Assembly: GCA_938003985.1 (NCBI GenBank)
Contig: CALKWZ010000076.1
Location: 11,045-75,044, forward strand
DNA length: 64,000 bases
Direction: 5' to 3'
Source of the DNA: an uncultured Verrucomicrobiota bacterium
Lineage (GTDB): Bacteria; Verrucomicrobiota; Kiritimatiellia; CAIQIC01; Lenti-01
Shown: piece by piece, positions 17,594 through 57,021 of the stretch
Numbering within the stretch: the first letter of the stretch is position 1
Layout of the letters: each line of letters begins with the position of its first letter
Program-made: the position numbers and the translations under genes
The notes under the pieces: model-generated
What the model saw: the letters and a program-made list of their open reading frames with translations, nothing else
The model's database searches: none
Told to the model about the DNA's origin: nothing

Positions 17594-20500
17594 ATGAAGA
17601 ACAAGTTTGTTCGTCTGGGCTTGTGCCTGTTGGCGGGATGGGGGCTGGCGGCGGTCTCCGCGCAGGCCGTGCAGGTGCGCATTGCGGACTTCAACGTGGC
17701 GTTCGGCCTCGATACGAACGACGACCGAGGCACGACCAACGACGTCGATTACGTGGCGGTGTCGAACACCCTCCGGCGCGTGCAGCCGGACATCGTGTGT
17801 TTCCAGGAACTGTATGCCGACGAAGACATGCAGGCCTGGATCGCGCTGGCCGCCCAGTTGGGCTATCCGTATTACGCGATGTCGACGGGCGGTTCGCTCG
17901 ACAACTCCATGCGCACGGGCGTCTGGAGCAAGTATCCCATCACGGGCACGGACCTGATCAAGGAAACCTATTACGATCCCGCCGCCGTGGAAATCATGCG
18001 CTGGCCGATCGTGGCGAAGATCGAAGTGCCCGGCGCCCTGTATCCCCTCTACGTGGCCTCGACCCACAACAAGGCCGGCACGACGACCAAATCCGCCCGC
18101 CTGCAGCGCGCGTTCGAAATTTACCGCACCGTCCAATACTTCAACCGCCTGGTCGCTTCCAACCCCACGGAAAACGTCCAGTACGCGATCATGGGCGATT
18201 TCAACGACGACATCGGGTTGACCCAGAACGACTTTTTCGACCAGGCCTACTATCTGTCCGTCGACCAGGATCTCGGCAACACCACGGCCACGTTCAACGA
18301 CGGGTTCGACATCCCGTGGAACACCAACGCCAGCTGGACGCTGCCCTACAGCAAGTATCCGACCGAGCGGCTGTCCTACGTCGACATGGGCTGGATCAAC
18401 CCGGTCCACACGGGCACCAACCTGACCTGGACGCACTACTACGTGACCGAAAGCGGCCGCTACCGCCTCGACTACATCCTCTTCAGCGACGAAATCATGA
18501 ACAGCGCCTACGGGGCGCCGACGGGCGAGATCTACAACGCGGAATTCGACGGCCCGGGCGTCGGCCTCTACAAGCCCGGACCCGTTCCGCCGAGCACCAC
18601 CAGCTACGACGCTTCGGACCACCGGATGCTGTTCGCGGACTTCCACCTGATCGACGCGGTGCCGGGCATCACGCCGGTCGCCATCCTCAGCGAAGTGGTG
18701 GACCATTCCGCCACGAACGGCACCTACGTCGAAATCTGCAATTCCGGCAGCTCCGCGCTGGATCTGGCGGGCTACGAGCTGGGCGTGTACCTGAACGGCT
18801 CGACGAACCCGACCAAGATCGCGCTGAGCGGCACGATCGCGGGCGGCGGCACCCACGTGGTGGCGACCTCGACCAATGGCTTCCAGACCTACTGGGGGCT
18901 GACCCCGGACCAGACGGCCGGCATCGTGGGCTCCCTCAACGGCAACGACACGGTGGCGCTGATCAAGCCCAACGGATCCGTCTCGGACGTTTTCGGCCAG
19001 ATTGGCGCCGTGCCCGGCGCCTGGACGTTCACGGACAAGGCCGCCGCCCGCAAGGCGGGGGTGAGCGATCCGCTCGCGACGTGGGATTCCAACGAGTGGA
19101 CGATCGTGTCCTACACGAACGCGACGCCGGGCTGGCACCAGGCCCTGGCCGCCGCCGAAGCCTACGTGTCCGCCGGGCCCGCGCTCGATCCCGCGGCGCC
19201 CCGGGCGACGAACACGTTCGCCATCTCGGTCGGCATCACCCCGAACATGCTGGCCTCCAACCTCGCCGCGACGGGCGTCTTCCGCGTGGCGGGCGGCAGC
19301 TGGATCGGCGCGGCCATGACCAACCAGGGCACGGTCTGGCGGACGCCCCAGCTCAACGTCTCGAAGGAGCAGGGCGACGTGCTCGACTACTACGTGCGCT
19401 TCTCGTTCCAAGGGCCGGAAGGGCTCCACACCAATGCCACCGTCACCAATGCCTACACCTTCCCGGTCTTCGGCTCGTCCACCAACCTGAAGCCGATGTT
19501 CAACGAAGTGCAGTCCGACGGCAACGGCACGGACACCAACGAATTCATCGAACTCGTCGCGCCGGCAGGGCTCGATTTGCAGGGGTACCGGATCGAACAC
19601 CGCAACGGCGCCGACGCCACCGACGGGCCGGTCTGGACCTTCACATTCCCGGCCTTCGTCGTGCCGGACGACGGCGTGCTGGCCGTGGGCGACGTGCCGC
19701 TGGGCTTCGCGGTCGTTTCCCAGAATTCCAACTACGTCGCCAACACCGATTTCATCCTGCCGGGCGGGTTGCTGAATTCGGGCGACGGCCTCATCCTCTA
19801 CGACGCGCAAAGCAATATCCTGGACGCGGTGGTCTATTTGGGCGCCACGTACGACATCGGCGTGGACGATCCCGCCACCGTGTCGAAAGAGGTGCCGCCC
19901 GGCAGCAAGAACTATCTGCATGAAATCGGGACCGACTCGACGACGGACACGACCCCGCAGGCGCCCAACAACGTGCTGATGGCGACCAACGGCACGTGGG
20001 CCAACGCCACGGCTACGCCGGGGGCGCTCAACGCCCAGCAGCAAAGCGGCAGCATCATCATGGCGCCGGGCGACGGCGATCTGGACGCGTTCCTGGACGA
20101 CGTGGACAACTGTCCCGAAACCTTCAACCCGACCCAAACCGACACGGACGGCGACGGCCAGGGCGACGCCTGCGATGCGGACATCGACGGCGACGGCGAC
20201 CTGAACGCCAACGACAACTGCCCGTATCTGCCCAACGCGAACCAATCGGACATCGACGGCGACGGCATCGGCGACGCGTGCGATCCGGACGCCGACGGCG
20301 ACGGCATCCCCAACGAAGAGGATCCCAACCCGCTCTATTCCGGCAACATCAACCTCGATTTCGAGGATGCGGCCCTGAAAGACACGTATACGGACTACAC
20401 GCCCAAGTCGATCGCCGGCCGGATGTGGGTGATCTCCAACGCGCTGGTGGTTTCAACCAGCGACGTGAACAACCGCATCGAGGGCGAGCGGGGCGTGCAT

Positions 20501-23467
20501 CTGCGCGGCACCGTCGGCGGCATTTACCTGCAAGGGACGCTGACCAACGGCATCGGCGACTTCCGGATCGCCTACGCCCGCTACGGGACGGACAAGGGCT
20601 TGAATTTCAAGGCCGAATACGACGCCGGTTCCGGATGGACCACGATCACCACGGGCAGCACCTTGAACGTCACGGCCCTGAAGACGAACGCGGTCACGGT
20701 CAACGTCGTCGGCCCGGTGGATTTCCGCATCACGTGGACCGGCGGCAGCACCCGCGACGAAGCCAATCTGGACAACGTCTGGATCACGTCCTACGTGCCG
20801 CCGGAGACCGGCCAGGCGGAATGCGCGCTCGATGCGGCGGTAGCGGCCGCCTTTGACGGCTCCGCCCAGACGAACACGTTCACGGTCACGCCGGCCGGCA
20901 TCCCGTACGCGGTGACCTATGCGCCGGCGAATCCGGTGGAAATCGGCACCTATACCGCCACGGTCGTCATCCCCGACGGCGACTACCTGCTGGGCGGGAC
21001 GTTCGTCTACCCCAATTCCGTGACGATCACCCAGGGCGTGGCCACCTGCGAGATGGCCGCGCCGATCTCCACGGGCTACGACGGCCTCCTGCACACGAAC
21101 ACGTTCGCGGTGACGACGGGGTTGGCGTGGACGGTGAGCTACGCGCCGACGAATCCGGTGGACCCGGGCACCTACGACGCCACGGTGACGGTGACCGGCG
21201 ACAGCCACTACCAAGGCGGCACCTTCGTCTTCAGCAACGCCGTGACGATCGCGGACGGGCAGGCTGCCGCCACGCTGGACGAGGCGCTCGTCGTTAACTA
21301 CGACGGCCAGGTTCACACCAACACCTTCACGGTGACGCCGGGACTGGCCTGGTCCGTGGCCTATTCGCCATCCCTTCCGGTGGCCGTCGGGGTCTACGAC
21401 GCCACGGTGGCGGTGACCGGCAACGCCCAGTACGTCGGGACGACCAACGTGTTTGCCTCGGCCGTGGTCATCCAGCCGGCCGGCGGCGGCGGCACCGCCA
21501 TCGGCGATCCGTACGTCGTCGACTTCGACTGCGGCGGCGTGCCCAGCGCCGTCTACGGACCGCACACGAATACCCTGAACGCCGTCAACCCCACGCAGTG
21601 GTTCCTCGACAACGCCTACCGCGGCAGCACCGCGACCGACGTCAAGAACTCGGGCTGCGGCACGACCAACTCGATCCGCCTGCGCTTCGTGAGCGCCGCG
21701 GCCACGACCAACGGCGTGGTGCAGAGCCTGACGCCGTTCTCCAACGGCATCCATTCGGTGGCCTTCAACTACGCGATGTTCAGTTCCGACACCGCCGGCA
21801 CCTTCGCCCTGCAGACCAGCACCGACGGCACGAACTGGACCACCCACACCAACGTGGTCGCCAACGGCATCACCGGCACGTTCGCCTACCTGTCGAACAC
21901 GATCAGCGTCGCCCAGTCGGCCTATCTGCGCCTCAAGATGGTGGACGGCACCGCCGGCCACCGCGTCAACGTCGACGACGTCGTGGTGCTGCCCTACGCG
22001 GGCATGTCCCAGGCCGACGTCTCGCTGTCCAATCTGTCCCAGACCTACGACGGCGCGGCCAAGACCGCGACGGTGACGACTTCGCCCACGGGGTTGGCCA
22101 CGGCCGTGTCCTACAACGGGTCCTATGCGGCGCCGTCGAACGCCGGCAGCTATACCGTGGTGGCCACGGTCATCGAAGCCGGCTATACCGGCAGCGCCAC
22201 CGGCACGCTGACGATCGCGAAGGCCGCGGCCGGCGTGACGTTGACGGACCTTCTCCAGACCTACGACGGCGCCGCGCGGCCCGCGGCGGCGACGTGCGTG
22301 CCGGCCGTGGCGTATGCGTTGACCTACGACGGTTCGTCGGCGGCCCCCACGAACGCGGGGAGCTATACCGTCGTGGCGAGCGTGACCGACGCCAACTACC
22401 AGGGCGGCGCCACCGGCACGCTGGTCGTGGCCAAGGCCGAAGCTTCGGTGGCGTTCGACAGCCTGTCGGCCGCCTACGACGGCACGGGCAAAGCCGCCGT
22501 CGCGTCCACCGAACCGGAAGGCCTGGCCGTGAACCTGACCTACGACGGGTCCGCCGCGCTGCCCGTGGCCGTCGGCTCCTACGCCGTGGTCGCCGCCGTC
22601 CTCGAGGCCAACTACCAGGGCGGGGCGACCGATACCTTCACGATCGCCAAGGGCGCCGCCGCGGTCACGCTGACGGGCTTGGCCCAGACCTACGACGGGA
22701 CGCCCAGGAGCGCGGGCGCGACCACCGAACCGGTGGGCCTGAGCGTGAACCTGACCTACGACGGCTCGGCGACGGCCCCGACCGCGGCCGGCAGCTACGC
22801 CGTGACCGGCACCGTGGCCGACGCGAACTACGCGGGCGCCGCCACCGGCACGCTGGTCGTGGCCAAGGCCGCCGCGACGGTCGCGCTGTCCGGCCTGTAC
22901 CACGTCTACGACGGCTACGCCAAGAGCGCGACGGTGACCACCGATCCGGTCGGCCTCAACGCGGCCGTGACCTACGACGGTTCGGCGTCCGCGCCGACCG
23001 CCACGGGCAGCTATGCCGTGGTCGCGACGTTGGCGGAAGCCAACTATCAGGGGGCGGCCACGGGCACGTTGACGATCGCCGCGGAAGGCGCGGATCCTTT
23101 CGTGCAATGGCTGCAGGACCAGGAACTCGATCCGGGCGACAGCCGCTACGACGAAACGGCCGACGACGACGGCGACGGCATGACCACCTACGACGAGTAC
23201 GTGGCCGACACCGCGCCGGACAGTTCCAACAGCGTGCTGAAACTCTCGGGCACCTACGTGCGCGCCGGCGCCAGCAACGCCACCGGCAAGATCCTGTTCT
23301 CGTTCCCGGCCAGCACCGGGCGCTTCTACCAGTTGCTCTACAAGACCAATCTGTTCACCCCCATGCTGACCAACAATCTGGGGTGGGGCGTGCCCGGCAT
23401 GGTCGTCACCAACGACTCGCTCGGCGCTTGGTTCGGAGACGTCCGCGTCCGGCTGTCGGAACCCTAG
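17594..23467 (+). CDS. Giant secreted multidomain nuclease/adhesin: EEP nuclease + 2 lamin-tail domains + TSP3 Ca-binding repeats + about 8 MBG-like repeats + C-terminal TSP3-like tail module
   Basis: 1957 aa.
- Signal peptide [25 protein letters not shown].
- EEP motifs ([42 protein letters not shown]).
- LTD segments ([17 protein letters not shown]; [21 protein letters not shown]).
- TSP3 run [50 protein letters not shown] at about 20063..20335.
- Five tandem repeats of about 76 aa of type TYDG..K.A.VTT.P.GL....TYDGS...P..AGSY.V.A.....NY.G.ATGTL.I.KA at about 22010..23090.
- Three divergent copies at about 20820..21490. Confidence 0.85.
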
Positions 23468-27169: not shown

Positions 27170-27375
27170 ACGGAAGATCGCACCCGCGGGGCGCCGTTCG
27201 CTTTGTGCCGGCGCCGCATCCGCATTCGGCATCCAAACAGAATCCTAAACAACGGGCGATCTGCCGGTCTTCATTTTCTGGCGTTTTCCGCTAGACCCGT
27301 CCGGTGGGTTCCACTAGATTGGGCCTTCGAAATCTAGCGGTATTTTTCAATACGCATCGAAGAGAGGTAAATGCC

Positions 27376-27945
27376 ATGGCATCGTTCATGAAGGAACTGA
27401 AAGCGGAAATCGCCCGGCTGGCCCGGAAGGAAATCAAAAAGGAAGTCGCGCCCGTCCAGCGGATCAGCGCGTCGCGGCGCGGCATGATCGCCGACCTGCG
27501 CCGCCAGGTGGCCGCGCTGCAGCGCGACGTGGCGGACCTGCGCCGGGCCCTGGCCCGGGGCGGCCCGCTGCCGCTGGCGGTCCAGCCCGCGGAAATCGCC
27601 GCCGGCGACGACGGCCGCAAGGGCTTCTGGATCACGGGCAAGGGCGTGCGCAAGTTGCGCCTGCGTCTGGGCCTGACGCAGACTGAATTCGCGGCGCTGG
27701 CGAACGTCAGCGGCCAGACCGTCGTCAACTGGGAAGGCACGTCGGGCAAGATCCCGCTGCGCCGCAAGGATTCCGCCGCGCGCCTGCAGGAAATCCGCAA
27801 GATGAAGAAGCGCGACCTGAAGAAAGCCGCGGAAGCCAAAGCCCCGGCCAAGGCCAAAGCCAAGGCCAAGGCCAAAAAGGCCAAAGCCAAAAAAGCCAAG
27901 GCCCCGGCTCCGGCCAAGGTCGAAGCCGCCCCCAAGGCCGAATAG
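27376..27945 (+). CDS. XRE-type HTH protein with N-terminal coiled coil and histone-H1-like Lys/Ala C-terminal tail
   Basis: MASFMKELKAEIARLARKEIKK.. (coiled coil). HTH LRLRLGLTQTEFAALANVSGQTVVNWEG. Tail KKAAEAKAPAKAKAKAKAKKAKAKKAKAPAPAKVEAAPKAE. Confidence 0.7.
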   Translation: MASFMKELKAEIARLARKEIKKEVAPVQRISASRRGMIADLRRQVAALQRDVADLRRALARGGPLPLAVQPAEIAAGDDGRKGFWITGKGVRKLRLRLGLTQTEFAALANVSGQTVVNWEGTSGKIPLRRKDSAARLQEIRKMKKRDLKKAAEAKAPAKAKAKAKAKKAKAKKAKAPAPAKVEAAPKAE

Positions 27946-28278: not shown

Positions 28279-29109
28279 CTAAATCCCGCCCCGCGCCGCG
28301 CGCAGGGCGGGCAGGTAGGTTTGATCCAGGCTGTGGGGCGGCTGGCCGTCGGCCGAGGCGAATTCGATCGGTCCGCCCACGTGGCGATAGCCGAGCAATT
28401 CGGGCGGGACCTTCGTCACCACGTCGCGGCGGTTCGCGATCCGCCAGGCCGCGAGGCGCTGCCGCGCGAAATGCCGCGCCCAGCGCGCGGCGCCCGTCCG
28501 CGGCGCGGCGAAGGTGAACACCTCCAGCGCGCGGTACGGCAGGCCCCCGGTGGCGACGTCCATCGCCGCGAGCGCGGCCAAGGCCCCGCCGAGACTGTGG
28601 CCCGTCACCCGGATCCGCGACTCCGGCGTGGCGTGCGCTTCGAGAAAGGCCCGGATCGCCGGCCGGACCGATTCATAGCACCGGTGGAAGCCGCGGTGCA
28701 CGTGGCCGCCCTGCAGATCGTCGAAAACGGCGTCCCGCCGCGCGGCCATGTAGTTCGAAATCTTCTCGCCCGCGCTCTGCGTGCCGCGGAACGCGACGTA
28801 CAGGCGGCGGCCGGCGCGGGCGCAGACGCCCGCGGGGGTGGTTTCGGTGCGGGTCACGTAGCGCCGCCCGCCCTTGCCGCCCGATGCGCGGGCCGTCCGA
28901 TAGGTCAGCGTGCGCCAGAACGGCTCCTCGAAAACCAGATCCCCCAGCGCGGGGAGCGCGAACCGCATGGCCCTCGGCGGCGGCTTCCCGGCATCCGACC
29001 ACTGCTGATAAAGCCCATAGGCCGCCTCCACCAGCCGCACGCACGCCAACGCCTGGCGGACGGAAAACCCCTCCGGCAACGGCAACGCAATGGGAACGCC
29101 CCGGCTCAC
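28279..29109 (-). CDS. Class 3 lipase family protein
   Basis: 276 aa with VAFRGTQS.. and the nucleophile elbow VTGHSLGGALAALAA, typical of the Lipase_3 family. Confidence 0.8.
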   Translation of the reverse strand: MSRGVPIALPLPEGFSVRQALACVRLVEAAYGLYQQWSDAGKPPPRAMRFALPALGDLVFEEPFWRTLTYRTARASGGKGGRRYVTRTETTPAGVCARAGRRLYVAFRGTQSAGEKISNYMAARRDAVFDDLQGGHVHRGFHRCYESVRPAIRAFLEAHATPESRIRVTGHSLGGALAALAAMDVATGGLPYRALEVFTFAAPRTGAARWARHFARQRLAAWRIANRRDVVTKVPPELLGYRHVGGPIEFASADGQPPHSLDQTYLPALRAARGGI

Positions 29110-29487
29110 GGCCTCAACCTAGCCGCCTCGCCCGCCCCCCGGCAAGCCGAAACCCACCCGCCGTCCCCGCCCCCGCCGCAACCGAAACGCCGGGGTGGGG
29201 GCGCCGCGGCTCGCCACGGGCGCTCGTGATGCGACGAAAATTCCAGAATACAAACCTGTGCCGCCCCCACGAAATTATAAGACAGTAAACTTATGCGTCA
29301 TTTTGTGGAAATTTTCCGCATAACTTTCATTCAACGCTTTTACTGGTGTTCTCGCCCAATGCCTGCTAGTATCAGATTTGAGATGAAAGAAAATCCGGTT
29401 CATTCTCAAAAGACATGGATCTAGTTGCCGGAATATCTGCCAACAGGCACGGCAATAATGAGTTATAATTATTATCTTGCATAATCG

Positions 29488-29501
29488 GTATCAATTGATA
29501 C
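29488..29501. promoter_or_regulatory. Perfect 14-bp palindrome GTATCAATTGATAC immediately upstream of the toxin-like gene (candidate operator)
   Basis: Read directly. It ends 4 nt before the ATG at 29506, and AT-rich -10-like hexamers (TATAAT at 29464..29469) lie just upstream. Confidence 0.4.
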
Positions 29502-29505
29502 TCTC

Positions 29506-29859
29506 ATGAGCAGAAACTATGAGCAACCGATTCCGGCCGCATGGCGAAAAGCCGTTGTCAAGGTGCTTCGAAGCGGCGACAAGACTCGAATTATCAGCAC
29601 GGTAGAGTCGAAAAATGATTGGGAAAGCACGTTTCCGGAGAGTTGGTGGCATGACCGCCCTGAAGCCATGGCCCGGGCTTTGGATGTCGATGGCATTGTC
29701 GGAAAACATGTCACGGATATGGATCCGCCCTGCGAAGCCTATGCGTTTTGGTTCCACTACGAAAAACGACAGATGTACGGAAAAATCGGGCTCTTGCCCA
29801 ATGGCGACGTAGTCATCATCTTTTCGAGCCACGTTCCGCGAAAAGGGAAGAAATTATGA
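29506..29859 (+). CDS. Small toxin-like protein (tentatively MqsR-like) of a TA/TAC module
   Basis: 117 aa. The C-terminal ..YAFWFHYEKRQMYGKIGLLPNGDVVIIFSSH resembles the MqsR C-terminal strand pattern (..VYLKITVIHDVLIVSFKEK). It sits first in the operon, and its stop overlaps the next ATG (ATGA). The call rests on memory-based similarity only. Confidence 0.45.
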   Translation: MSRNYEQPIPAAWRKAVVKVLRSGDKTRIISTVESKNDWESTFPESWWHDRPEAMARALDVDGIVGKHVTDMDPPCEAYAFWFHYEKRQMYGKIGLLPNGDVVIIFSSHVPRKGKKL

Positions 29860-30386
29860 AGAAACGGAAAACCCCGCCTGTCCCGGGTTGGATGGCCATC
29901 ACCACGAAGCAGCCGGTGTTCATTCCCAATGCCACCGGCTACGGCGTGGCCGAAACCGTCATGCAGGAGGTTCCCGCCTGGAAGGATCCCAAGACGGGCC
30001 AAATCTACTTGGATGGAACGGCCCATGAGATTCTGGATGCGGTCAAAGCGCGGCACCTCGGAATTCTGCTGCCGGAGCAATTGCGGGATTTGCGGAATTC
30101 CATCGGGATGACCCAGAAGAAGATGGCCGAGTTGCTGCAGTTGGGGGAAAAGACCTGGACGCGCTGGGAAACCGGTGCGGAGCGGCCGTCCCGATCCATG
30201 AATCTTCTCCTGTGCGCCCTCCACGAGGGCAAAATCGATGTCGGCTATCTCCGCTCCAAGCGGCAGATGCCGGCGCTCGATGAGCTTGGACGATGGGAGA
30301 TGCCCGAACAAAAAGCAGGGGTTTCCTATCAGACTCCTAAACCAACTCTGGGAGAGCCCGATGAAAGCAAAACTGGCGCCGCTTAA
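29856..30386 (+). CDS. XRE-HTH antitoxin-like protein (MqsA-like, zinc-less) with C-terminal extension
   Basis: HTH region LLPEQLRDLRNSIGMTQKKMAELLQLGEKTWTRWETGAERPSRSMNLLLCAL parallels the MqsA HTH (..LSLTQKEAAEIFGGGVNAFSRYEKGNAQPHPSTIKLLRVL). An extra tail of about 45 aa follows the HTH (GYLRSKRQMPALDELGRWEMPEQKAGVSYQ..). Confidence 0.6.
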   Translation: MKKRKTPPVPGWMAITTKQPVFIPNATGYGVAETVMQEVPAWKDPKTGQIYLDGTAHEILDAVKARHLGILLPEQLRDLRNSIGMTQKKMAELLQLGEKTWTRWETGAERPSRSMNLLLCALHEGKIDVGYLRSKRQMPALDELGRWEMPEQKAGVSYQTPKPTLGEPDESKTGAA

Positions 30387-30846
30387 GTGCCATGGATACT
30401 TCGTTACGGGGTTGATGATTGCGGCGAATCCCGAATACGACAAAAAGAAACCGAACGCCCTGCTGTTTGGTGATCTGCAAATCGATTCGACGGCAAAGCC
30501 GGTATCCAAGAAGTTCGACGGAAGACTTTGGCAAGTCATCCTGCAGATGCAGCAGAACGTTGGGCCGGACAAAAACACGCCCTACAACTTTTCGGTCACA
30601 GTGGTGGGCCACTTCGAGGTTCATCCAAAGTATCCGGTCGGAAAAGCGCAGCAATTGGTGGAGATAAATGGCAGTTCAATTCTATACAGTTCTGCCCGGC
30701 AAATTTTAAGAGATGCCATGCACAACGGCCCGTTTCCGGCGCTTGACTTGCCGACGGTCAGCTTCTTTGATGCCGAGCCCGATTTGCCGGCGAAGAAAAT
30801 CGTAGCGGAAGCCTCGGCGAACTGCGGCGATAAAACCGGAAAATAA
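30361..30846 (+). CDS. SecB-like chaperone
   Basis: 161 aa. ..FSVTVVGHFEV..GKAQQLVEINGSSILYSSARQILRDAMHNGPFPALDLPTVSF parallels E. coli SecB ..[50 protein letters not shown]. Its start overlaps the antitoxin 3' end by 26 nt. Confidence 0.7.
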   Translation: MKAKLAPLKCHGYFVTGLMIAANPEYDKKKPNALLFGDLQIDSTAKPVSKKFDGRLWQVILQMQQNVGPDKNTPYNFSVTVVGHFEVHPKYPVGKAQQLVEINGSSILYSSARQILRDAMHNGPFPALDLPTVSFFDAEPDLPAKKIVAEASANCGDKTGK

Positions 30847-30876: not shown

Positions 30877-33800
30877 ATGTCGAAGAGGAAAAAGCAGATC
30901 GCAAACGCTGAAGGTCAACTCAATCTGGCCCTGACGGGCGATACTTTTGCTGGGCCTGCTGAAACCAACGGCGTCTTTTCTCTCGCTTACCTGTTAAGAC
31001 AATTGGAGCAGTCGCCATCTTTCGCCGCCCAATCCGATGCGGCGGTCGCTTATGAATTGGTCTGCCGGTTGTATCGGCAACACGGCGTGGCTCTTAAAAG
31101 GCAGAATGAAGCCTTTACCTGTTCCACTTTTCTCGAACCTGTCCTGGACTCGCTCGGCTGGCATCGGATTCCCCAGCAATCTATGCCGAGCAGCATGGAG
31201 ACCCGGAAGCGTCCGGACTATTGTCTTGTCACCACTGAGCAAGCCTTCATGGAGGCATCGCGTGCCGATGCCGTGAAGTTATTTCAGCTTAGCGCCACCG
31301 TCTTGGAAGCTAAGAAATGGGGGCACCCTTTGGACCGGATGTCCTCCGGAGAAACCCCGGGTTGGTTCCCTAGCCAGCAAATCCAAGACTATTTGAATCA
31401 CGCGAAAGACGCGACGGGGCATCGGTTCTTCGACTGGGCCATCCTCACGAACGGCGACGAATGGCGTCTTTACTGTGAACAATCCGCCGTGGGGGCCTAC
31501 TTCAGTTTCCATCTCGTTCGCGATGGCCAGTTGTGTACGGAGGACGAGTTCAGGCTTTTCTTCACGCTTTTCCGGGCTGCCGCCTTTGATCGCTCGCCGG
31601 AAGGCCTTTGTTTTCTCGATTCCGTGCGCGAGCAGTCGTTGCGGGCGCAGGGCGAACTAGAGCTAAATCTACGCAAGCGCATCTTTGGCGTTCTTGAAGA
31701 CCTTGGCACTGCGTTCGCAAATCGGGAAGAAAACGGCTTGCACGAGGCTGATTACCCCAAGGTCTACGAAGTTTCCTTGGTCTTTCTATATCGCCTTTTG
31801 TTTGTTCTCTATGCGGAGAGCCGGGGGCTCCTGCCCGTTCGCGAGTATGGCGCAGGGGCGAATCGCCGTTATCTAAACGATTTTTCCTTGGCCCGCTTGG
31901 CTGGCAAGTTGCGCGACAGTTCCCATTATCAAGACAATGCGTTTTGCCAGCTATACGAGGAATTGCTGCACTTGTTTGAGCTGATTAACGGCACGTTTCC
32001 TTCGCGAAATGCGTCTCTCAAGGTCACCCGCTACAACGGCGGGTTGTTTAGTCTGCGGGCGCACGAAGAAATTGGACGTTGGCGGATCGGGGACCGGGAC
32101 TTGGCCGATATTCTCAGGCAATTGATATATGTCCAGCCGCCCGCTCGTTCCCGCGAGGCTCAACGACAGATCAGCACTCGGGAAGCGATTGATTACAGCA
32201 CGCTGGAAGTCCGCCAGCTCGGCGACATCTACGAGGGCCTGCTGGGCGCGCACTTCGAAAAAGTCGAAGATCGCCTTGAGTTGCGGAACGAGAACGGCGA
32301 AAACCATCGCTCCGGGATATTCTACACGCCCGATTGGATCGTCCAGTTCCTCGTAAACGAAACCTTGTTGCCGTTGCTGTCAGAAATCGAGCGGTCGCCC
32401 GACGTCCAGCGAGCCTTGCAGGCTCGTTCAGAGGAGCGAAAACGGGACAATTCTTTCGCGTTCGGCGTGCTCAACCTCAATCTCGTCGATCCCGCCATGG
32501 GCAGCGGCCATTTTCTGGTTCGCGCGACGGAATGGCTGGCCGACCACATCATGAGCCATCCCACGACCCAGCCGATGACGATGCAAATCATTGGTCAGGG
32601 TCAAGGCCAAATCAGCCGGGAAGAAATTATCGCGCGCGGCAAGATTCCCGTGGCCCCCGGAATTTCCCAGGAACAGGCGGAGAAGGCTTATTGGCGCCGC
32701 CGCGTCGTAGAGGCCTGCATCCATGGCGTAGATGTCAATCCCATGGCAGTCGAGTTGGCGAAACTCTCGCTGTGGCTGACTTGCATCGCGGCCGACGAAC
32801 CCCTCAATTTCCTAGACCACCACTTGCGAAAAGGCAATGCCTTGCTGTCGGTCGCCCCCGATGAGCTCAAGTTGGCGCCGGATGGACAGGAGACGTTCGA
32901 TCTCGGGGAAAGGCTTCACGACGTTCTCTCCGGCATTATCCGCGACACGCTTGCCATCGAAAGGCAACCTAGCACGGAAATGGAAGCCGTGAAGGATAAG
33001 GAACGGCTATGGAAGGATTTGAGGTTGCGGCTAAAACCTTTCCTTGATCTGTCGGACCTCTGGATTTCCATGTTGGATGGAGTGCCCCTGGTCGAGATGG
33101 AATATCTGTCCGTTGCACGTCTGTTGCTGGGCGACCAGACTCTTACAGGACCAGAAAAGCGAGATGCCAAGCGGCGCCTGGATTCCATTGCTGTAGCGCT
33201 AGCGTCGAAGAAGGCGGACCTGATGCCCTTCCACTGGCGGTTGGAATTCCCGGATGTTTTCTACGACGAAAGCGGGGAGGTATCGCCCCCGAACCGATGC
33301 GGATTCGATGCCATTCTCGGCAATCCCCCGTATGTGTCCATCCACACGGCGAAAGAGATTGGCAACCGCAAGATGCGCGATGCCTTGGAAAAACGCGCGG
33401 GCTATCTGGAAGACCTCTATGTCCATTTCACCGATCTTGGTTTCCAACTACTGCGCAAGGGCGGCGGGTTCGGGTTCATTGTATCGGACACTTTCTTTAC
33501 GCTGGCCTCCAAGTTCCGCATGCGAGAAATACTCCAGAGGAATTCGCTCGACTGGCTCGGTCAATGCGATCCCTTCGATGCCACGGTAGACGCAGCGGTT
33601 TTCGTTGCCCGCAAGCAGGTGCCCGAGGCAAACCATCGCTTCCGCTTTGTTCAAGCCAGGCCCCGCAAGCGACCCGACGGTACTCGCACCGTGCCCGATG
33701 AGAACTTGGAAAAACTGTCGCAAACCAATGCTCTTGCATGGAATGAACCCGCAACGCTGACGCCGTTCGGCGATGTCTTCCATGCCACGGTGGCCGAGTT

Positions 33801-35352
33801 GCGGCTTCATGAAATTCCGCTTTCCTTGCATGCCGCGGCCCACAAAAAGGTATTTTTCGAGCCCCGTCCTGGCACTCTGCACCTTTTCGACCGCTTCAAC
33901 GCCAATGTGAAGGAGCTTGTTGCGGAATGGTGGGAGAAGATTGAAGACTCTCGCGAATTCAGCGCCAACCTTCCTGAAATCCAAGCCTATCACCGCACCT
34001 TGCGCCCCGGCGACATCTCGCTAGTCGGGCTTGTGGCGGAAGGTGGGCAAGGAATGCGCACGGCCAACAACGCCCGTTTTCTAGCCTATCTCGACGGCAC
34101 CCCGCAGGCAGAGGAAATCAAGGAGAAGTCGCGGGCATGGTCTGCCTCTTGGCTGGCGAACGAACGGGTTGGATCAACTTTCCGCGAACTTTTGCAACAA
34201 GCGGGTGGGGACGCCGCTCGACCGACTGCCAACCGGCCCGCATGGGAAGCCGCCGTGCATGGTCTTCGCGAGCGATTCACGCCCGCCCAACTGGGCTTGG
34301 GCCGAACCTTCCTTTTCCGCATTGCGCCGCCGGACCTCGTTGCCGGGGCAGAGGATTTCGCCTATTCCTTCTTGCGCCGCAAGGCGGAACTCCTTGTGCA
34401 TTGGCAGGGACGGTCGGAATTCATGGGCTTTTGGGACGACAAGATGGAGATTGGCGGGAATTTTGTGGCCCATTCGGACTGTCGCAAGGCCAAGACCATT
34501 TCGGACGCGGATTTCTGCGAGCTTTGCCAGCACCTGCAGCTTTGGGTCAGACATGAAAACGCCGTGAGGAAACCGTCGCAGCGCATTCCTAAAGAAGCCA
34601 TAGGCTTGCGATCTAGTGAAGACTACTCCGATCCGGCTGACGCTCCGCGAATCGCCGCGATTTATAATGGCCTTTTGGGCCGCGCCCAATATGTCCCATT
34701 CCGGAAGGGGGACCCCGAAGGAAGCCGGTGGCTGGACAACGAACCGCTCTTTTGCGATTGGTCAAAATCATCTGTGGATTGGCTCTCAACAGATAATTCT
34801 GCACGCTGGCAGGGTCATCGATTCTTTTTCCTTCCAGGTGTTACATGGACCGCCGTAGCTAATCATGTCGCGCTTAAATCAAGGTTCCAAGAGCCATGCG
34901 TATTTGATGCCGATAGTATGAGGCTTACTCCGTTACCAAGCACTCTTTCGGCTGAAGCATTCGTGGCGATTCTTAACAGCGATGTCTTCAGTTACTTCAA
35001 GATGCGATTCGTTCAACACACGCAAAAGTGGGAAATCGGGAATTTGCGTCAGATGCCCATTGTGATGCCAAATAAGAGGCAACAGGACTCGCTTGCGAAA
35101 CTGGCCTCGCTTGCGATGGCCGCAAAACGGCATGAGTTTTCGGGAACATCCCCCGACAATGATTTGGTTGCGCGTGTTCGCGTAATTAGTGCGCGGCTGC
35201 GTGCGGATGGGCCAGATTATTTGCAGCCCAGCGCCCAAGGATTATTGCTGGCAGGCCCCAACGATTGTCTGGAAGTGATCGAAAAAGCCATCAACTGGGA
35301 AGCCGAAAAACTCTACGGCGTTGAAGGCCTTGGCCCATTCGACGAATTTTAA
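30877..35352 (+). CDS. Type IIG restriction-modification fusion enzyme (N-terminal PD-(D/E)xK nuclease + gamma-class N6-adenine MTase + PglX/TaqI_C-like specificity region)
   Basis: 1491 aa.
- N-terminal HsdR_N-like nuclease motifs RKRPDYCLV..VLEAKKWG..QIQDY..ILTNGDEWRLY.
- MTase motif I VDPAMGSGHFLV and motif IV ILGNPPYVS.
- C-terminal YVPFRKGDPEGSRWL..FFFLPGVTWT..ILNSDVFSYF..EIGNLRQMPIV, as seen in PglX/MmeI-like enzymes. Confidence 0.8.
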   Translation: MSKRKKQIANAEGQLNLALTGDTFAGPAETNGVFSLAYLLRQLEQSPSFAAQSDAAVAYELVCRLYRQHGVALKRQNEAFTCSTFLEPVLDSLGWHRIPQQSMPSSMETRKRPDYCLVTTEQAFMEASRADAVKLFQLSATVLEAKKWGHPLDRMSSGETPGWFPSQQIQDYLNHAKDATGHRFFDWAILTNGDEWRLYCEQSAVGAYFSFHLVRDGQLCTEDEFRLFFTLFRAAAFDRSPEGLCFLDSVREQSLRAQGELELNLRKRIFGVLEDLGTAFANREENGLHEADYPKVYEVSLVFLYRLLFVLYAESRGLLPVREYGAGANRRYLNDFSLARLAGKLRDSSHYQDNAFCQLYEELLHLFELINGTFPSRNASLKVTRYNGGLFSLRAHEEIGRWRIGDRDLADILRQLIYVQPPARSREAQRQISTREAIDYSTLEVRQLGDIYEGLLGAHFEKVEDRLELRNENGENHRSGIFYTPDWIVQFLVNETLLPLLSEIERSPDVQRALQARSEERKRDNSFAFGVLNLNLVDPAMGSGHFLVRATEWLADHIMSHPTTQPMTMQIIGQGQGQISREEIIARGKIPVAPGISQEQAEKAYWRRRVVEACIHGVDVNPMAVELAKLSLWLTCIAADEPLNFLDHHLRKGNALLSVAPDELKLAPDGQETFDLGERLHDVLSGIIRDTLAIERQPSTEMEAVKDKERLWKDLRLRLKPFLDLSDLWISMLDGVPLVEMEYLSVARLLLGDQTLTGPEKRDAKRRLDSIAVALASKKADLMPFHWRLEFPDVFYDESGEVSPPNRCGFDAILGNPPYVSIHTAKEIGNRKMRDALEKRAGYLEDLYVHFTDLGFQLLRKGGGFGFIVSDTFFTLASKFRMREILQRNSLDWLGQCDPFDATVDAAVFVARKQVPEANHRFRFVQARPRKRPDGTRTVPDENLEKLSQTNALAWNEPATLTPFGDVFHATVAELRLHEIPLSLHAAAHKKVFFEPRPGTLHLFDRFNANVKELVAEWWEKIEDSREFSANLPEIQAYHRTLRPGDISLVGLVAEGGQGMRTANNARFLAYLDGTPQAEEIKEKSRAWSASWLANERVGSTFRELLQQAGGDAARPTANRPAWEAAVHGLRERFTPAQLGLGRTFLFRIAPPDLVAGAEDFAYSFLRRKAELLVHWQGRSEFMGFWDDKMEIGGNFVAHSDCRKAKTISDADFCELCQHLQLWVRHENAVRKPSQRIPKEAIGLRSSEDYSDPADAPRIAAIYNGLLGRAQYVPFRKGDPEGSRWLDNEPLFCDWSKSSVDWLSTDNSARWQGHRFFFLPGVTWTAVANHVALKSRFQEPCVFDADSMRLTPLPSTLSAEAFVAILNSDVFSYFKMRFVQHTQKWEIGNLRQMPIVMPNKRQQDSLAKLASLAMAAKRHEFSGTSPDNDLVARVRVISARLRADGPDYLQPSAQGLLLAGPNDCLEVIEKAINWEAEKLYGVEGLGPFDEF

Positions 35353-35374
35353 CGGCCACTGATGACCGGAGATG

Positions 35375-35942
35375 TTTATAGGCGCGCAGCTCATCGAGGG
35401 GGAAGTCGCCAGGGGTGCGTTCGTAGGTCCAGAAGGCAGAGTCGTTGAGGGGGGCGAGTTTGTACGAGGTGAAATTGCGCGATGCTGTTGCCGAGTGTAT
35501 ATCAATCCCGCCTGACTGCATTATCAAGGTAATCAAGGATTCTCCGATTGGTATATTTGCCGGCAAGCTCGAACAGGTGCATGCCGCGCACGTATTCAAC
35601 GATTTCGCCGGTTGAGAAGGGCGGAGTTGCCTGATCTTCACAATCGACTTGCCAGTCGATGCCTTCGGTTGTTTGGAGTCAGATGGCGATCATCTCGTAC
35701 TGCTCCAGCTTCTCGACGTGGGCAAGAATGAGGGCATCGATCGTATGCTCGTAGACGTCCCACAAGACGGACTGCTCGTATTGGATTTGGACGCAAACCT
35801 CTTCCCACGTGTTTTTGAGACCCGTGTCGTCGCCAAGTGCAAGGGAATCGGTCAATTTTCGTAGCTCACGAGCGGTTTTTCGGGCGATGGCGGACGACAC
35901 CCGCAGGGCCAACGCGCGCACAACCTGTTCTTCGACATTCAA
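35375..35942 (-). pseudogene. Degraded gene: in-frame TGA plus a +1 frameshift, with a RAMA-like C-terminal remnant paralogous to the neighbouring gene
   Basis: The reading frame from TTG 35942 (..NVEEQVVRALALRVSS..EKLEQYEMIAI) hits TGA at 35679..35681. It then continues in the same frame as LQTTEGIDWQVDCEDQATPPFSTGEIVEYVRGMHLFELAGKYTNRRILDYLDNAVRRD, stopping at 35502. A shifted frame continues IDIHSATASRNFTSYKLAPLNDSAFWTYERTPGDFPLDELRAYK. This aligns with the C-terminus of the 35945..36637 protein (VRRDGTIRYAGKLYNSPSLAA..NGWEFWNYQRAPGDWVPLDALRS). Confidence 0.4.
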
Positions 35943-35944
35943 CG

Positions 35945-36637
35945 CTAGCTTCTCAGCGCGTCGAGGGGGACCCAGTCGCCGGGGGCGCGCTGGTAGTTCC
36001 AGAATTCCCAACCGTTGCAGGTGGGGCGTTTGCAGGCGGCGGCGGCGGCGAGCGAGGGCGAGTTGTATAGCTTGCCGGCGTAGCGGATGGTGCCGTCGCG
36101 GCGCACGGTGGCCTTGAGGATCTTGCCCTTGAAATGGGCGCGGAGGGGAAACGCCGTGGTGACGTATTTGGCGAGGGGCGGGGTGCGGCCATCTTTCTGT
36201 TCCTTGGCGGCTTTGCGGCGAGCGGGATCGGGCGCGGTGAGCATGTCGAAAACGGAATCTTCGAAATCCCGCTTCATGTCGCGCAGGAAGATGGGGCGGA
36301 GGTCGCTGGACCGGGCGAATTGTCCCTTCTGCTTGTTGCCGGCGGGCTTGACGGTGCGGAGGATGAGGGCTTCCAGCTCGCGCAAGTGGCGGTCGCCGAT
36401 GGTGAGGTAGACGGAGAAGCGGTCCCAGGAGTCGGCGTGACGGTCGCGGAGGTGCTGCTTGAGGCGGTTGCGGAGGTTGGTGGCGAGGCCGACGTAGTAG
36501 AGCTTGCCCTTGCGGTAGAGGACGTAGATGCCGTGGCGCCCCCGCACGTACTGGCGGATGATGTTCTGGTATTCCTCGAGGGCTGCGCGGGAGATGTTTT
36601 CGAGGTGCTGGCAAACGAGCTGGGCGTTGCGTTTCAT
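35945..36637 (-). CDS. GIY-YIG nuclease-domain protein with C-terminal RAMA/DUF4357-like domain
   Basis: GIY-YIG core RHGIYVLYRKGKLYYVGLATNLRNRLKQH. C-terminal ..GKLYNSPSLAAAAACKRPTCNGWEFW resembles the restriction-enzyme/methylase-associated (RAMA) domain signature. Confidence 0.65.
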   Translation of the reverse strand: MKRNAQLVCQHLENISRAALEEYQNIIRQYVRGRHGIYVLYRKGKLYYVGLATNLRNRLKQHLRDRHADSWDRFSVYLTIGDRHLRELEALILRTVKPAGNKQKGQFARSSDLRPIFLRDMKRDFEDSVFDMLTAPDPARRKAAKEQKDGRTPPLAKYVTTAFPLRAHFKGKILKATVRRDGTIRYAGKLYNSPSLAAAAACKRPTCNGWEFWNYQRAPGDWVPLDALRS

Positions 36638-36754: not shown

Positions 36755-36847
<93 letters not shown>

Positions 36848-55769: not shown

Positions 55770-56306
55770 CTAGATTTGTCCTCCGCATCTGATGAATAGT
55801 GCGCCTGTGCCAACCGTGTTTGACGAGGAGGGCGTGAACTTGATTCGGACTGTGTACGCCTGTTTGTCTTGGGGATCGAAGAAGCTCTTGTCGAGGTCGT
55901 ACAGATTGAAATCGTCCCGCGACCCGGATGCCCAGATCATTTGATCCGTATTCAGGCTGACTTCCCGGAGAGAGTCGCCTGCAGTGCCCAGGAGTGTGAG
56001 GTTCCAGTGCCCAACATTCGTCTTCTCCTTCGGGCCGTTGATCCCCAAGTAAAGCCCGCAATAGGGGAGAGTTGGCAGGTTGGCGAGCGTGTATTCTTCG
56101 GATGTGGGGCTGTTGAGAGGGAAGGACGGGAAGGATATCTGGTAGCCTCTGATCTTGTACCAGAGGAAGCGAAGGGAAATGTCTTTCATCTGACCATCTC
56201 CCCGATAGGCTGCGATCTCTTGCTTCAGATATGGTCTGTGCTCTGCGGACGCGCAAGCGCATAGCAACACGCACAAGGCCAACGCAATTGCCGGTCTGTA
56301 TTTCAT
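55770..56306 (-). CDS. Hypothetical lipoprotein (lower-G+C islet)
   Basis: MKYRPAIALALCVLLCAC lipobox. 178 aa. AT-richer codon usage than the surrounding genes. Confidence 0.55.
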   Translation of the reverse strand: MKYRPAIALALCVLLCACASAEHRPYLKQEIAAYRGDGQMKDISLRFLWYKIRGYQISFPSFPLNSPTSEEYTLANLPTLPYCGLYLGINGPKEKTNVGHWNLTLLGTAGDSLREVSLNTDQMIWASGSRDDFNLYDLDKSFFDPQDKQAYTVRIKFTPSSSNTVGTGALFIRCGGQI

Positions 56307-56328
56307 GATCTTCGCTTCACGTCACGGG

Positions 56329-57021
56329 TCAGCGGACCCGACACCTTGTGGCGGGTACGCTGGACCCGCTTGTTGGCCCTTTTTTGTTCCCAACGATCAT
56401 ATACTGCATGTCATCATATCGTTTAGCAGTGCTCAATAATCGGTCATAAGTCATGATCTCAATATCATGTTCATATCCATAACTGGATCGGATTATGTCG
56501 TTTTGTTCTGACAGTGCCGTTCTACGACCGATCATAATATAGTACTTGTAGGTTATATATGTACGCGGATCGCGTAGATACTTGCCAGAGAAGGTGAGGG
56601 GTTCTTTGTCACGTGGTTTATTGAACACGTCGGTAGTTCGCGCTGCGTCAGCAAGCTGATTCCGAAAATCTGTTGGATTAGCATGTACATATCTTGCCCA
56701 GTCGCCGATTTGTTTTTGCGCATGCCGGAGTCGTGGAGATTCGATACCTTTAGAATTATATATGGCGTCGTCAATTGGTTCTAGCTCAAGGAAGTGAACC
56801 TTCCAGCCAGTCGAATATCCCTGAAGAAGCATAAAGTCGCATCTAAGCGATTTTCCAATGCCAAATTCTGGCAATACATAGTGCGCGTGTCCCCCACAGT
56901 CAAAAAACGCCCAATAGAGAAATTCTGGATTTGCCTTCAAAAATCGCGCAATGCCGCGTTCCCCCGTCGAAGAGGCGAGCGCTTTCGCTACAATAGAAGT
57001 GTTATTCATAATTGTGGCCAA
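56329..57021 (-). CDS. DUF4263-type (Shedu SduA nuclease-domain-like) protein, minimal form
   Basis: ..RFLKANPEFLYWAFF..HYVLPEFGIGKSLRCDFMLLQGYSTGWKVHFLELEPIDDAIYNSKG.ESPRLRHAQKQIGDW matches the DUF4263 pattern (FL..nP.ll..; D-F-hl; hhhhElK-like strand; A..Q). The canonical Lys after E-x is not obvious. TTG start at 57021, with an alternative ATG at 57009. Confidence 0.5.
   Translation of the reverse strand: MATIMNNTSIVAKALASSTGERGIARFLKANPEFLYWAFFDCGGHAHYVLPEFGIGKSLRCDFMLLQGYSTGWKVHFLELEPIDDAIYNSKGIESPRLRHAQKQIGDWARYVHANPTDFRNQLADAARTTDVFNKPRDKEPLTFSGKYLRDPRTYITYKYYIMIGRRTALSEQNDIIRSSYGYEHDIEIMTYDRLLSTAKRYDDMQYMIVGNKKGPTSGSSVPATRCRVR

Follow-up and report, generated by a model that had tools for sequence, protein, structure and literature searches.

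A three-gene locus in the genome of an uncultured Verrucomicrobiota bacterium very probably encodes a tripartite toxin-antitoxin-chaperone (TAC) module, in which a SecB-like chaperone would preserve the antitoxin. The locus lies in a stretch of 64,000 nt (GCA_938003985.1, contig CALKWZ010000076.1, positions 11,045-75,044, forward strand), which is referred to as a whole as the window and from whose first nucleotide positions are counted. Its genes, here called gene 1, gene 2 and gene 3 (Table 1), are co-oriented and tightly packed in the order toxin, antitoxin, SecB-like chaperone, which is the organisation of a TAC. The ATG of gene 2 at 29856 lies within TTATGAAG and forms an ATGA overlap (4 nt) with gene 1, while gene 2 and gene 3 overlap by 26 nt, with a GGGAG Shine-Dalgarno-like motif preceding the gene 3 start. 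Gene order and overlaps were found to be kept in about 20 lineages, down to 31% identity of gene 1; where one of these lineages has to be singled out below, it is designated by its number (L001 and so on). An initial annotation, made from the sequence alone, had proposed a TAC from three genes with ATGA and 26-nt overlaps and a perfect 14-bp palindrome 4 nt before the toxin ATG. The open reading frame list and the raw sequence confirmed all of these elements, and the TAC reading gained support from the fold of gene 1, the helix-turn-helix (HTH) domain and tail of gene 2, the SecB match of gene 3 and the conserved gene order. By analogy with studied TACs, a role of the module in phage defence is also likely, at a somewhat lower confidence than the tripartite mechanism.

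Gene 1 is predicted to adopt an MqsR-like fold

Gene 1 gave no sequence-family match in Pfam, NCBIfam, PADLOC or the Protein Data Bank (PDB), and a search of plasmids returned nothing useful; sub-threshold matches to RelE and RbpA were set aside and not used as evidence. An exhaustive profile search assembled a gene 1 family of 149 clusters at 50% identity. An AlphaFold2 (AF2) model computed from a 150-sequence alignment reached a predicted local distance difference test (pLDDT) score of 96.3, and its secondary structure elements follow the order strand, helix, strand, two helices and four strands, which is the topology of MqsR. When the model was compared with the PDB using Foldseek, the best match was E. 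coli MqsR (3hi2_B; probability 0.99, template modelling (TM) scores 0.53/0.61, E 0.015), and the next matches were RelE, YoeB and HigB2. This is the MqsR/RelE-like fold that Foldseek was expected to return if the MqsR-like strand pattern noticed by the initial annotation was genuine, and the pattern was thus borne out at the level of the predicted fold. A search of a viral fold library gave no significant match. A separate model from 12 close homologues had a pLDDT of 78 and gave NTF2/ketosteroid-isomerase noise in Foldseek; it was dropped for the 150-sequence model.

Across the family, conservation reaches at least 90% for K93, S107 and H109, and position 91 is usually a tyrosine, all on the last two strands. 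A manual alignment to MqsR, anchored on secondary structure, tentatively pairs K67, Y79, Y91/K93 and H109 of gene 1 with the catalytic residues of MqsR, which we take to be K56, Q68, Y81 and K96. By this manual equivalence, the residues on the last two strands would be placed where MqsR has Y81, K83 and K96. Because the model matches MqsR and the sequence searches are empty, gene 1 is best described as an MqsR-like member of the RelE superfamily by predicted fold and as a separate family by sequence, one that has no Pfam model.

The antitoxin tail and the SecB-like chaperone occur together

Gene 2 passes the Pfam HTH_31 model (36 bits, cut-off 27), and its HTH region spans about residues 71-125 (nt 30066-30230). 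The matches of gene 2 to MqsA and HigA in the PDB are weak. Residues 1-70 would form the toxin-binding domain, and the recognition region, LLQLGEKxWTRWExGxERPSRS, is nearly invariant across related loci. Beyond the HTH, gene 2 carries a 41-residue tail (residues 136-176) that includes W147, Y158 and a terminal Ala-Ala.

Comparison of the related loci revealed that the tail and the chaperone gene are present or absent together. Antitoxins of SecB-linked lineages have a variable tail of about 40-50 residues; all 19 of them end in Ala-Ala and keep the Tyr that corresponds to Y158 in the window, and an aromatic residue about 11 residues before it (W147 in the window) is usual and mostly conserved. 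All three chaperone-less lineages, on the other hand, have a tail that is missing or replaced by an unrelated one. In the L010 clade the tail is an unrelated one with KRR at its end, the L006 antitoxin matches at 99% identity as far as residue 142, just inside the tail, beyond which it diverges, and the L153 antitoxin has just 137 aa. The Ala-Ala end is retained where the overlapping gene 3 codons give different residues (APLK vs SNLQ), and therefore selection acts on the antitoxin end itself. Such co-occurrence of tail and chaperone is what a chaperone-addiction model predicts, and at the sequence level the L006, L153 and L010 variants are consistent with it.

In studied TACs, removal of the addiction segment makes the system chaperone-independent (PMC5105189; bioRxiv 10.1101/2024.02.24.581848), Y114 of HigA1 is essential for chaperone binding (bioRxiv 10.1101/2024.02.24.581848), and the antitoxins bear ClpX degrons, Val-Ala in HigA1 and LAA in CmdA (PMC11618068 among the sources). 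By analogy, the terminal Ala-Ala of gene 2 may be a ClpX-type degron, and W147 and Y158 may be the residues through which the tail contacts the chaperone. Gene 2 had originally been described as an XRE/MqsA-like HTH protein without zinc cysteines that bears a chaperone-addiction tail. Its passing HTH_31 score, its sub-cut-off scores with MqsA models and the missing cysteines all agree with the first part of this description, and the tail behaves in the comparative data as the second part would have it.

Gene 3 passes the Pfam SecB model (32.4 bits, gathering score 26) and scores at most 27.6 bits with the NCBIfam SecB equivalogs, whose cut-offs are 102-244 bits (27.6 vs 143). Since the equivalog scores are so far below their cut-offs, gene 3 is regarded as SecB-like and not as a housekeeping SecB. 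With a profile built from 14 homologues, the top-ranking PDB sequences were those of SecB from H. influenzae and E. coli (matches to 1fx3, 5jtl and 1qyn), and hhalign aligned gene 3 with E. coli SecB at E 0.0013 over 81 columns, across the ILYSxAR...GPFPxLxLPxVxF core. The likeness to SecB that had first been seen by eye therefore holds at the Pfam threshold and in profile and hhalign alignments to solved SecB proteins, and the sequence comparisons set this SecB homologue apart from the export chaperone of the housekeeping type.

A palindrome upstream of gene 1 is conserved across related loci

The palindrome GTATCAATTGATAC is present in the window as a single copy, even when 3 mismatches are allowed. 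A lone perfect 14-bp palindrome is not improbable: a random sequence of 64 kb is estimated to contain about 4, and a match within 3 mismatches turned up in 33 of 100 shuffles; its significance comes from its conservation across loci. Every examined locus but two has exactly one copy of the identical 14-mer, at a distance of 2-25 nt upstream of its gene 1 homologue, over a range of 31-98% protein identity. The exceptions are L023, which has one mismatch, and L153, in which the site reads GGTATCGTGTGATACC, with a changed centre and the outer half-sites kept. The palindrome is the best-conserved feature of the locus. It would serve as the operator at which the gene 2 HTH antitoxin represses its own operon, and conservation of the identical 14-mer down to 31% protein identity strengthens what the initial annotation had called a plausible operator.

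The 16-mer GGTATCAATTGATACC gave more than 120 matches in viral contigs, one only of which (L102) was accompanied by homologues of gene 1 and gene 2. Since the other matches are due to chance or unrelated, the palindrome alone is not diagnostic of the module. In L102 (IMGVR_UViG_3300025913_000960, positions 102-905), a viral or prophage contig, the homologues of gene 1 (31% identity) and gene 2 (50%) lie behind the same palindrome, and some members of the family are therefore phage-borne.

Upstream of the palindrome, the non-coding leader from 29305 on is 97% identical to that of L003, and L006-L008 share part of it. Every locus has a TTGACA/TTGCAT-like hexamer 5-8 nt ahead of the palindrome; in the window it is the -35-like TTGCAT at 29477-29482, which follows an A-rich tract. 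A promoter scan reported no + strand sigma-70 site upstream of gene 1. Distant loci have a leader of 24-25 nt with an AAGGG motif. An Rfam search of the island and leader returned two tRNAs as the sole matches.

Proposed mechanism and comparison with characterised systems

The overlaps between the genes suggest that genes 1-3 would be translated from one transcript. Gene 1, judged by its predicted fold, would be an endoribonuclease of the MqsR/RelE type that stops translation. Following the MqsRA paradigm, the cysteine-less MqsA-like N-terminal domain of gene 2 would neutralise gene 1, and a dimer formed through its HTH would bind GTATCAATTGATAC in the promoter and start-codon region and repress the operon; the joint conservation of the recognition helix and the site is consistent with this step. 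The 41-residue tail would destabilise the antitoxin through its putative Ala-Ala ClpX-type degron, and a SecB-like tetramer of gene 3 would hold the tail and so preserve the antitoxin, as suggested by studied TACs and by the strict co-occurrence of tail and chaperone. On phage infection, newly made phage proteins would compete for the chaperone, the antitoxin would be degraded and the freed toxin would abort the infection, in analogy with HigBAC, CmdTAC and E. coli MqsRAC. The toxin arm would then act as a second line behind the adjoining, probably co-transcribed restriction enzyme.

MqsRA-type TACs are an established, chaperone-addicted class (PMC5105189, Bordes et al. 2016). The MqsA of Vcho-TAC from V. 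cholerae RC385 has 176 aa with an addiction segment at 136-176 (PMC5105189), which is the same length and the same tail boundary as in gene 2. MqsRAC of E. coli C496_10 confers defence against phage T2 and loses its activity when the chaperone is in excess (PMC9519451, Vassallo et al. 2022). The module of the window shares with these MqsRAC systems the order of toxin, MqsA-type HTH antitoxin and SecB-like chaperone, the MqsR-like predicted fold of the toxin and the defence setting. Unlike theirs, its toxin is not MqsR by sequence and comes from a family without a Pfam model, its antitoxin lacks the zinc cysteines and has a different recognition-helix sequence, and the module is tightly joined to restriction genes. 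MqsA recognises an ACCT...AGGT site, instead of which the window has GTATCAATTGATAC as its putative operator.

The antitoxin subtype itself has been seen before. Opitutus terrae B1ZSG3 is listed as a TAC MqsA-type antitoxin in Supplementary Fig. 1 of Bordes et al. 2016 (PMC5105189). Like gene 2, it comes from a verrucomicrobial host, belongs to the same cysteine-less MqsA-like subfamily and has a C-terminal extension, and the HTH sequences are nearly identical (LLQISAKSWTRWETGTQRPSRSLNLL vs LLQLGEKTWTRWETGAERPSRSMNLLL). Unlike that of gene 2, its tail ends in AV-S, as read from text obtained by optical character recognition. B1ZSG3 appears there only as an alignment entry, with no description of a toxin family, operator, degron or genomic context.

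More distant relatives share the logic of the tail. M. tuberculosis HigBA1-SecB(TA) (Rv1955-1957), E. coli HigBAC and CmdTAC resemble the module in having a disordered C-terminal tail with one or more essential aromatic residues and a ClpX-type degron, shielded by a SecB-like chaperone, whereas they use other toxin and antitoxin families, the toxin being the RNase HigB or the ADP-ribosyltransferase CmdT. Their chaperones sense phage structural proteins, with HigBAC and CmdTAC being triggered by tail or capsid proteins that compete for the chaperone (bioRxiv 10.1101/2024.02.24.581848; PMC11618068). No fusion of HigBA1-SecB(TA), HigBAC or CmdTAC to restriction operons is reported in the cited papers.

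Several observations weigh against assigning the locus to the TACs. None of the 150 members of the gene 1 family matches the Pfam MqsR toxin model (PF15723) or any toxin family; the hhalign comparison of the family with E. coli MqsR is non-significant, aligning only the YGKI/YLKI strand at E 0.059; the Foldseek E-value of 0.015 for the predicted model is modest; and the shallow-alignment model from 12 homologues had zero toxin matches. Gene 2 falls below the MqsA cut-offs (TIGR03830, 52 vs 61.8 bits; MqsA_antitoxin PF15731, 20.4 vs 30 bits), and its N-terminal 70 residues contain zero cysteines and thus no CxxC...CxxC zinc site. In the clade of the window, manual assignment of the -35 and -10 elements places the -10-like TACTCT within 1 nt of the gene 1 ATG, too close for a -10, and a Shine-Dalgarno sequence is missing. 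That gene 1 is toxic, that gene 2 neutralises it and binds DNA, and that the module depends on its chaperone are all inferences, and the cited papers contain no experiments on this subfamily.

The module is recurrently linked to restriction-modification systems

Restriction or restriction-like genes, from type I, IIG, III, IV-like or Hma systems, were found within one gene of the module in 16 of the 20 lineages with enough flanking sequence. A type IIG gene lies directly downstream of the module in the window and L001 and directly upstream in L013. Type I genes are directly downstream in L003, L007 and L008 and upstream in L009 and L155; in L154 they enclose the module, with hsdM on one side and hsdS on the other. 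Type III genes are downstream in L002 and L015. Hma genes surround the module in L023, L025 and L153, where it stands between HmaA and HmaB; GmrSD-like plus PLD-SNF2 genes are upstream in L029, and an MmeI N-terminal fragment is upstream in L031. No restriction gene was found near the module in L027, L014, L156 and the L010 clade. Spacing is tight as well: only 29-30 nt separate the end of gene 3 from the start of the restriction gene in five lineages, with both type I and type IIG enzymes among them.

The neighbouring enzyme can differ where the module does not. The window and L003 have modules that are 98% identical, a leader plus module that is 97% identical and the same tRNA-Ser, yet one carries a type IIG and the other a type I system. 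The L001 module is 62% identical to that of the window, and its type IIG enzyme 85.5%. In L002 (1868-2035), a 24-codon stump of a type IIG N-terminus with a stop directly follows the chaperone gene and precedes a type III Mod/Res pair; this stump is a recombination scar of cargo replacement. These sequence comparisons indicate that the restriction cassette is exchanged while the module stays.

Some modules are found inside other operons. In L154 (3890-5185), a 36%-identical module is part of a type I operon that runs hsdM, module, hsdS, RhuM, hsdR. In L023 (7980-9314), L025 (7001-8320) and L153 (4029-4783), it lies between two genes of the Hma defence system, HmaA (SNF2/NOV_C helicase) and HmaB (DUF1156 methylase), and the intergenic gaps are just 18-44 nt long. 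L153 additionally bears PRTase, DprA-like and Peptidase_U49 genes at the module.

Part of this linkage is common descent of one tRNA-Ser island, that of the window, L003 and L006-L008, and the distant lineages are independent. A literature search for a linkage of SecB-like chaperones to restriction-modification systems found none described, which is not proof of absence. The linkage, which the initial annotation had missed, seems to be the new part of this analysis. That it reflects a true functional coupling of the module to restriction systems is nevertheless doubtful, and it is improbable that this TAC lineage has turned into a dedicated partner of restriction-modification and Hma systems, placed within their operons or in front of the first gene.

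Alternative explanations

The module might chiefly be an addiction or stabilisation cassette for the tRNA-Ser island and its restriction cargo, acting by post-segregational or post-deletion killing and involving no phage sensing; we consider this possible, with the odds against it. Stabilisation of mobile regions by toxin-antitoxin systems is an established phenomenon, and the island has 55% GC in a 69% GC genome and adjoins a tRNA-Ser. In L001, L003, L015 and L027 the module has recombinase or transposase genes at its flanks, and it is the module that stays constant while the cargo beside it varies. However, the island of the window has no integrase, and for mere addiction a two-gene toxin-antitoxin pair would suffice. 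The chaperone and the degron-bearing tail are kept in 19 lineages, which argues for a regulated trigger and against an addiction function, and related TACs show anti-phage activity that depends on chaperone titration.

It is also conceivable, and in our judgement improbable, that the main task of the module is to control or guard the restriction-modification system next to it, and that it is not a free-standing abortive infection system. As a controller, its autoregulated promoter and HTH would time restriction-enzyme expression on host entry, as C-proteins do; as a guard, the chaperone and antitoxin would sense phage anti-restriction and free the toxin once restriction has been disabled, in the manner of PrrC in EcoprrI. 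The frequency of restriction(-like) genes of types I, IIG and III, GmrSD-like and Hma next to the module, the 29-30 nt gap before two types of enzyme in five lineages with no terminator pattern, the modules inside hsdM/hsdS and HmaA/HmaB, and the swapping of the cassette beside a constant module (window and L003; the L002 stump) all speak for it. By gene order only, L154 resembles EcoprrI in having a candidate latent toxin embedded in a restriction locus between hsdM and hsdS, and the window resembles C-protein systems in having an HTH protein with a palindromic putative operator directly upstream of a restriction gene. PrrC, however, is an anticodon nuclease that as a single protein is silenced by the restriction complex itself, and C-proteins have about 80-100 aa and paired C-boxes and come with no toxin or chaperone. 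The window has the HTH gene 5' of the restriction gene, a 30-nt gap and no terminator pattern, together with one palindrome, a toxin candidate and a chaperone. Co-location in defence islands is common among unrelated systems and needs no functional coupling, and L027, L014, L156 and the L010 clade have no restriction gene nearby. In L013, L009, L029, L031 and L155 the restriction genes are upstream, beyond the reach of the module promoter, and no second copy of the operator precedes the restriction gene. Moreover, characterised TACs function alone when cloned (PMC9519451).

A reading in which gene 1 is no toxin, gene 2 is a regulator with two accessory proteins and gene 3 is a general export chaperone, the likeness to a TAC being architectural, can appeal to the lack of a sequence match of gene 1 to any toxin family, to its modest fold-match E-values and to the ability of SecB-like TAC chaperones to replace SecB in E. 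coli (PMC5105189 supplement), but is very improbable given that the best fold matches are all RelE-superfamily toxins with MqsR first, that the near-invariant Lys, Ser and His and the usual Tyr lie on the last two strands where MqsR has Y81, K83 and K96, that the toxin comes first as in MqsRA, and that gene 3 is far below every SecB equivalog cut-off, stands in a foreign island overlapping gene 2 and tracks the antitoxin tail exactly.

The genomic island and its neighbourhood

The module lies at the left end of a segment of about 29.2-36 kb with roughly 55% GC, compared to roughly 69% in the genome (Table 1). The type IIG enzyme encoded behind it matches Pfam Eco57I (1e-24) and PADLOC DrmMI and REase_MTase_IIG. 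Its gene begins 30 nt after gene 3, no + strand terminator pattern was found between 30846 and 30877, and from this arrangement the gene is probably co-transcribed with the module. Host genes flank the island: a class 3 lipase adjoins it on the left, a xanthine/uracil permease lies farther out on that side, and CstA follows past two tRNA genes on the right. No att-like direct repeats were found at the island borders.

Table 1. Features of the three-gene locus and its surroundings in the window
Feature	Position	Strand	Description
Class 3 lipase	28279-29109	-	Host gene directly left of the island
Conserved non-coding leader	29305-29487	+	Upstream of the putative operator; from sequence comparison with related loci
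14-bp palindrome GTATCAATTGATAC	29488-29501		Putative operator for the gene 2 HTH
Gene 1	29506-29859	+	117 aa; toxin candidate, predicted MqsR/RelE-superfamily fold
Gene 2	29856-30386	+	176 aa; MqsA-type antitoxin without zinc cysteines
Gene 2 addiction-like tail	30261-30383	+	Residues 136-176
Gene 3	30361-30846	+	161 aa; SecB-like chaperone (SecB-TA type)
Type IIG restriction-modification enzyme	30877-35352	+	1491 aa; Eco57I/DrmMI/PglX-like
GIY-YIG nuclease with C-terminal RAMA domain	35945-36637	-	Pfam RAMA and GIY-YIG, PADLOC PDC-S14; right-hand bookend of the island
tRNA-Ser(GGA)	36757-36847	-	ARAGORN and Rfam; right edge of the 55% GC island; same tRNA at the end of L003

The GIY-YIG/RAMA gene is 95-97% identical in L003 (8335-9024) and 65-73% identical in L007, L008, L009 and L013. 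It recurs at the far end of the restriction cargo and, with the TAC module, brackets the swapped cassette near the tRNA-Ser; its GC content of about 64% is nearer to the host value than that of the rest of the island. An open reading frame at 35362-35520 (-), ending in ...FWTYERTPGDFPLDELRA, resembles the RAMA C-terminus of this neighbour (WEFWNYQRAPGDWVPLDALRS) and looks like a remnant of a second RAMA-domain gene from cassette exchange. A perfect 39-nt direct repeat (36813-36851/36938-36976) duplicates the 5' part of the tRNA-Ser 125 nt away, between tRNA-Ser and tRNA-Leu and outside the island, and may be the scar of an earlier integration or excision.

Elsewhere in the window, an XRE-type HTH protein just outside the island (27304-27945, +) has a long Lys/Ala-rich tail resembling histone H1 (AKAKAKAKKAKAKKAKAPAPAK). 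A 1957-aa protein (17594-23467, +) combines endonuclease/exonuclease/phosphatase and lamin-tail domains with thrombospondin type 3 repeats and five MBG domains and is probably a secreted or surface nuclease, judged by its domains. A second GC trough at 56001-57000 (48.9% vs about 68%) suggests another foreign insert.

Significance

The TAC class and this cysteine-less antitoxin subtype are already known, and because both are in the literature the novelty of the locus is modest; established phage defence by MqsRA-type TACs lowers it further, while the systematic linkage to restriction genes raises the interest. Useful additions are the fold of the toxin family, the joint losses of tail and chaperone, the universal Ala-Ala, the invariant operator candidate and the restriction linkage. 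A toxin family of about 149 clusters, unannotated in that it has no Pfam or NCBIfam model, can now be assigned to a predicted MqsR-like fold and a probable TAC role. The three independent joint losses of tail and chaperone, with the universal Ala-Ala elsewhere, are natural tests of the addiction and ClpX-degron model beyond the few organisms studied, and the invariant palindrome offers an immediate experimental handle.

A linkage that recurs, is this tight and persists through cassette swaps suggests that the defences are layered or coupled. If the linkage is co-location only, the locus would be an ordinary, well-behaved example of a known defence system. If the coupling is true, the autoregulated promoter would gate the restriction enzyme, or the sensor would fire the RNase when a phage neutralises or escapes restriction, and the locus would represent a portable, exchangeable unit of restriction plus suicide back-up in bacteria of the Planctomycetes-Verrucomicrobia-Chlamydiae (PVC) group.

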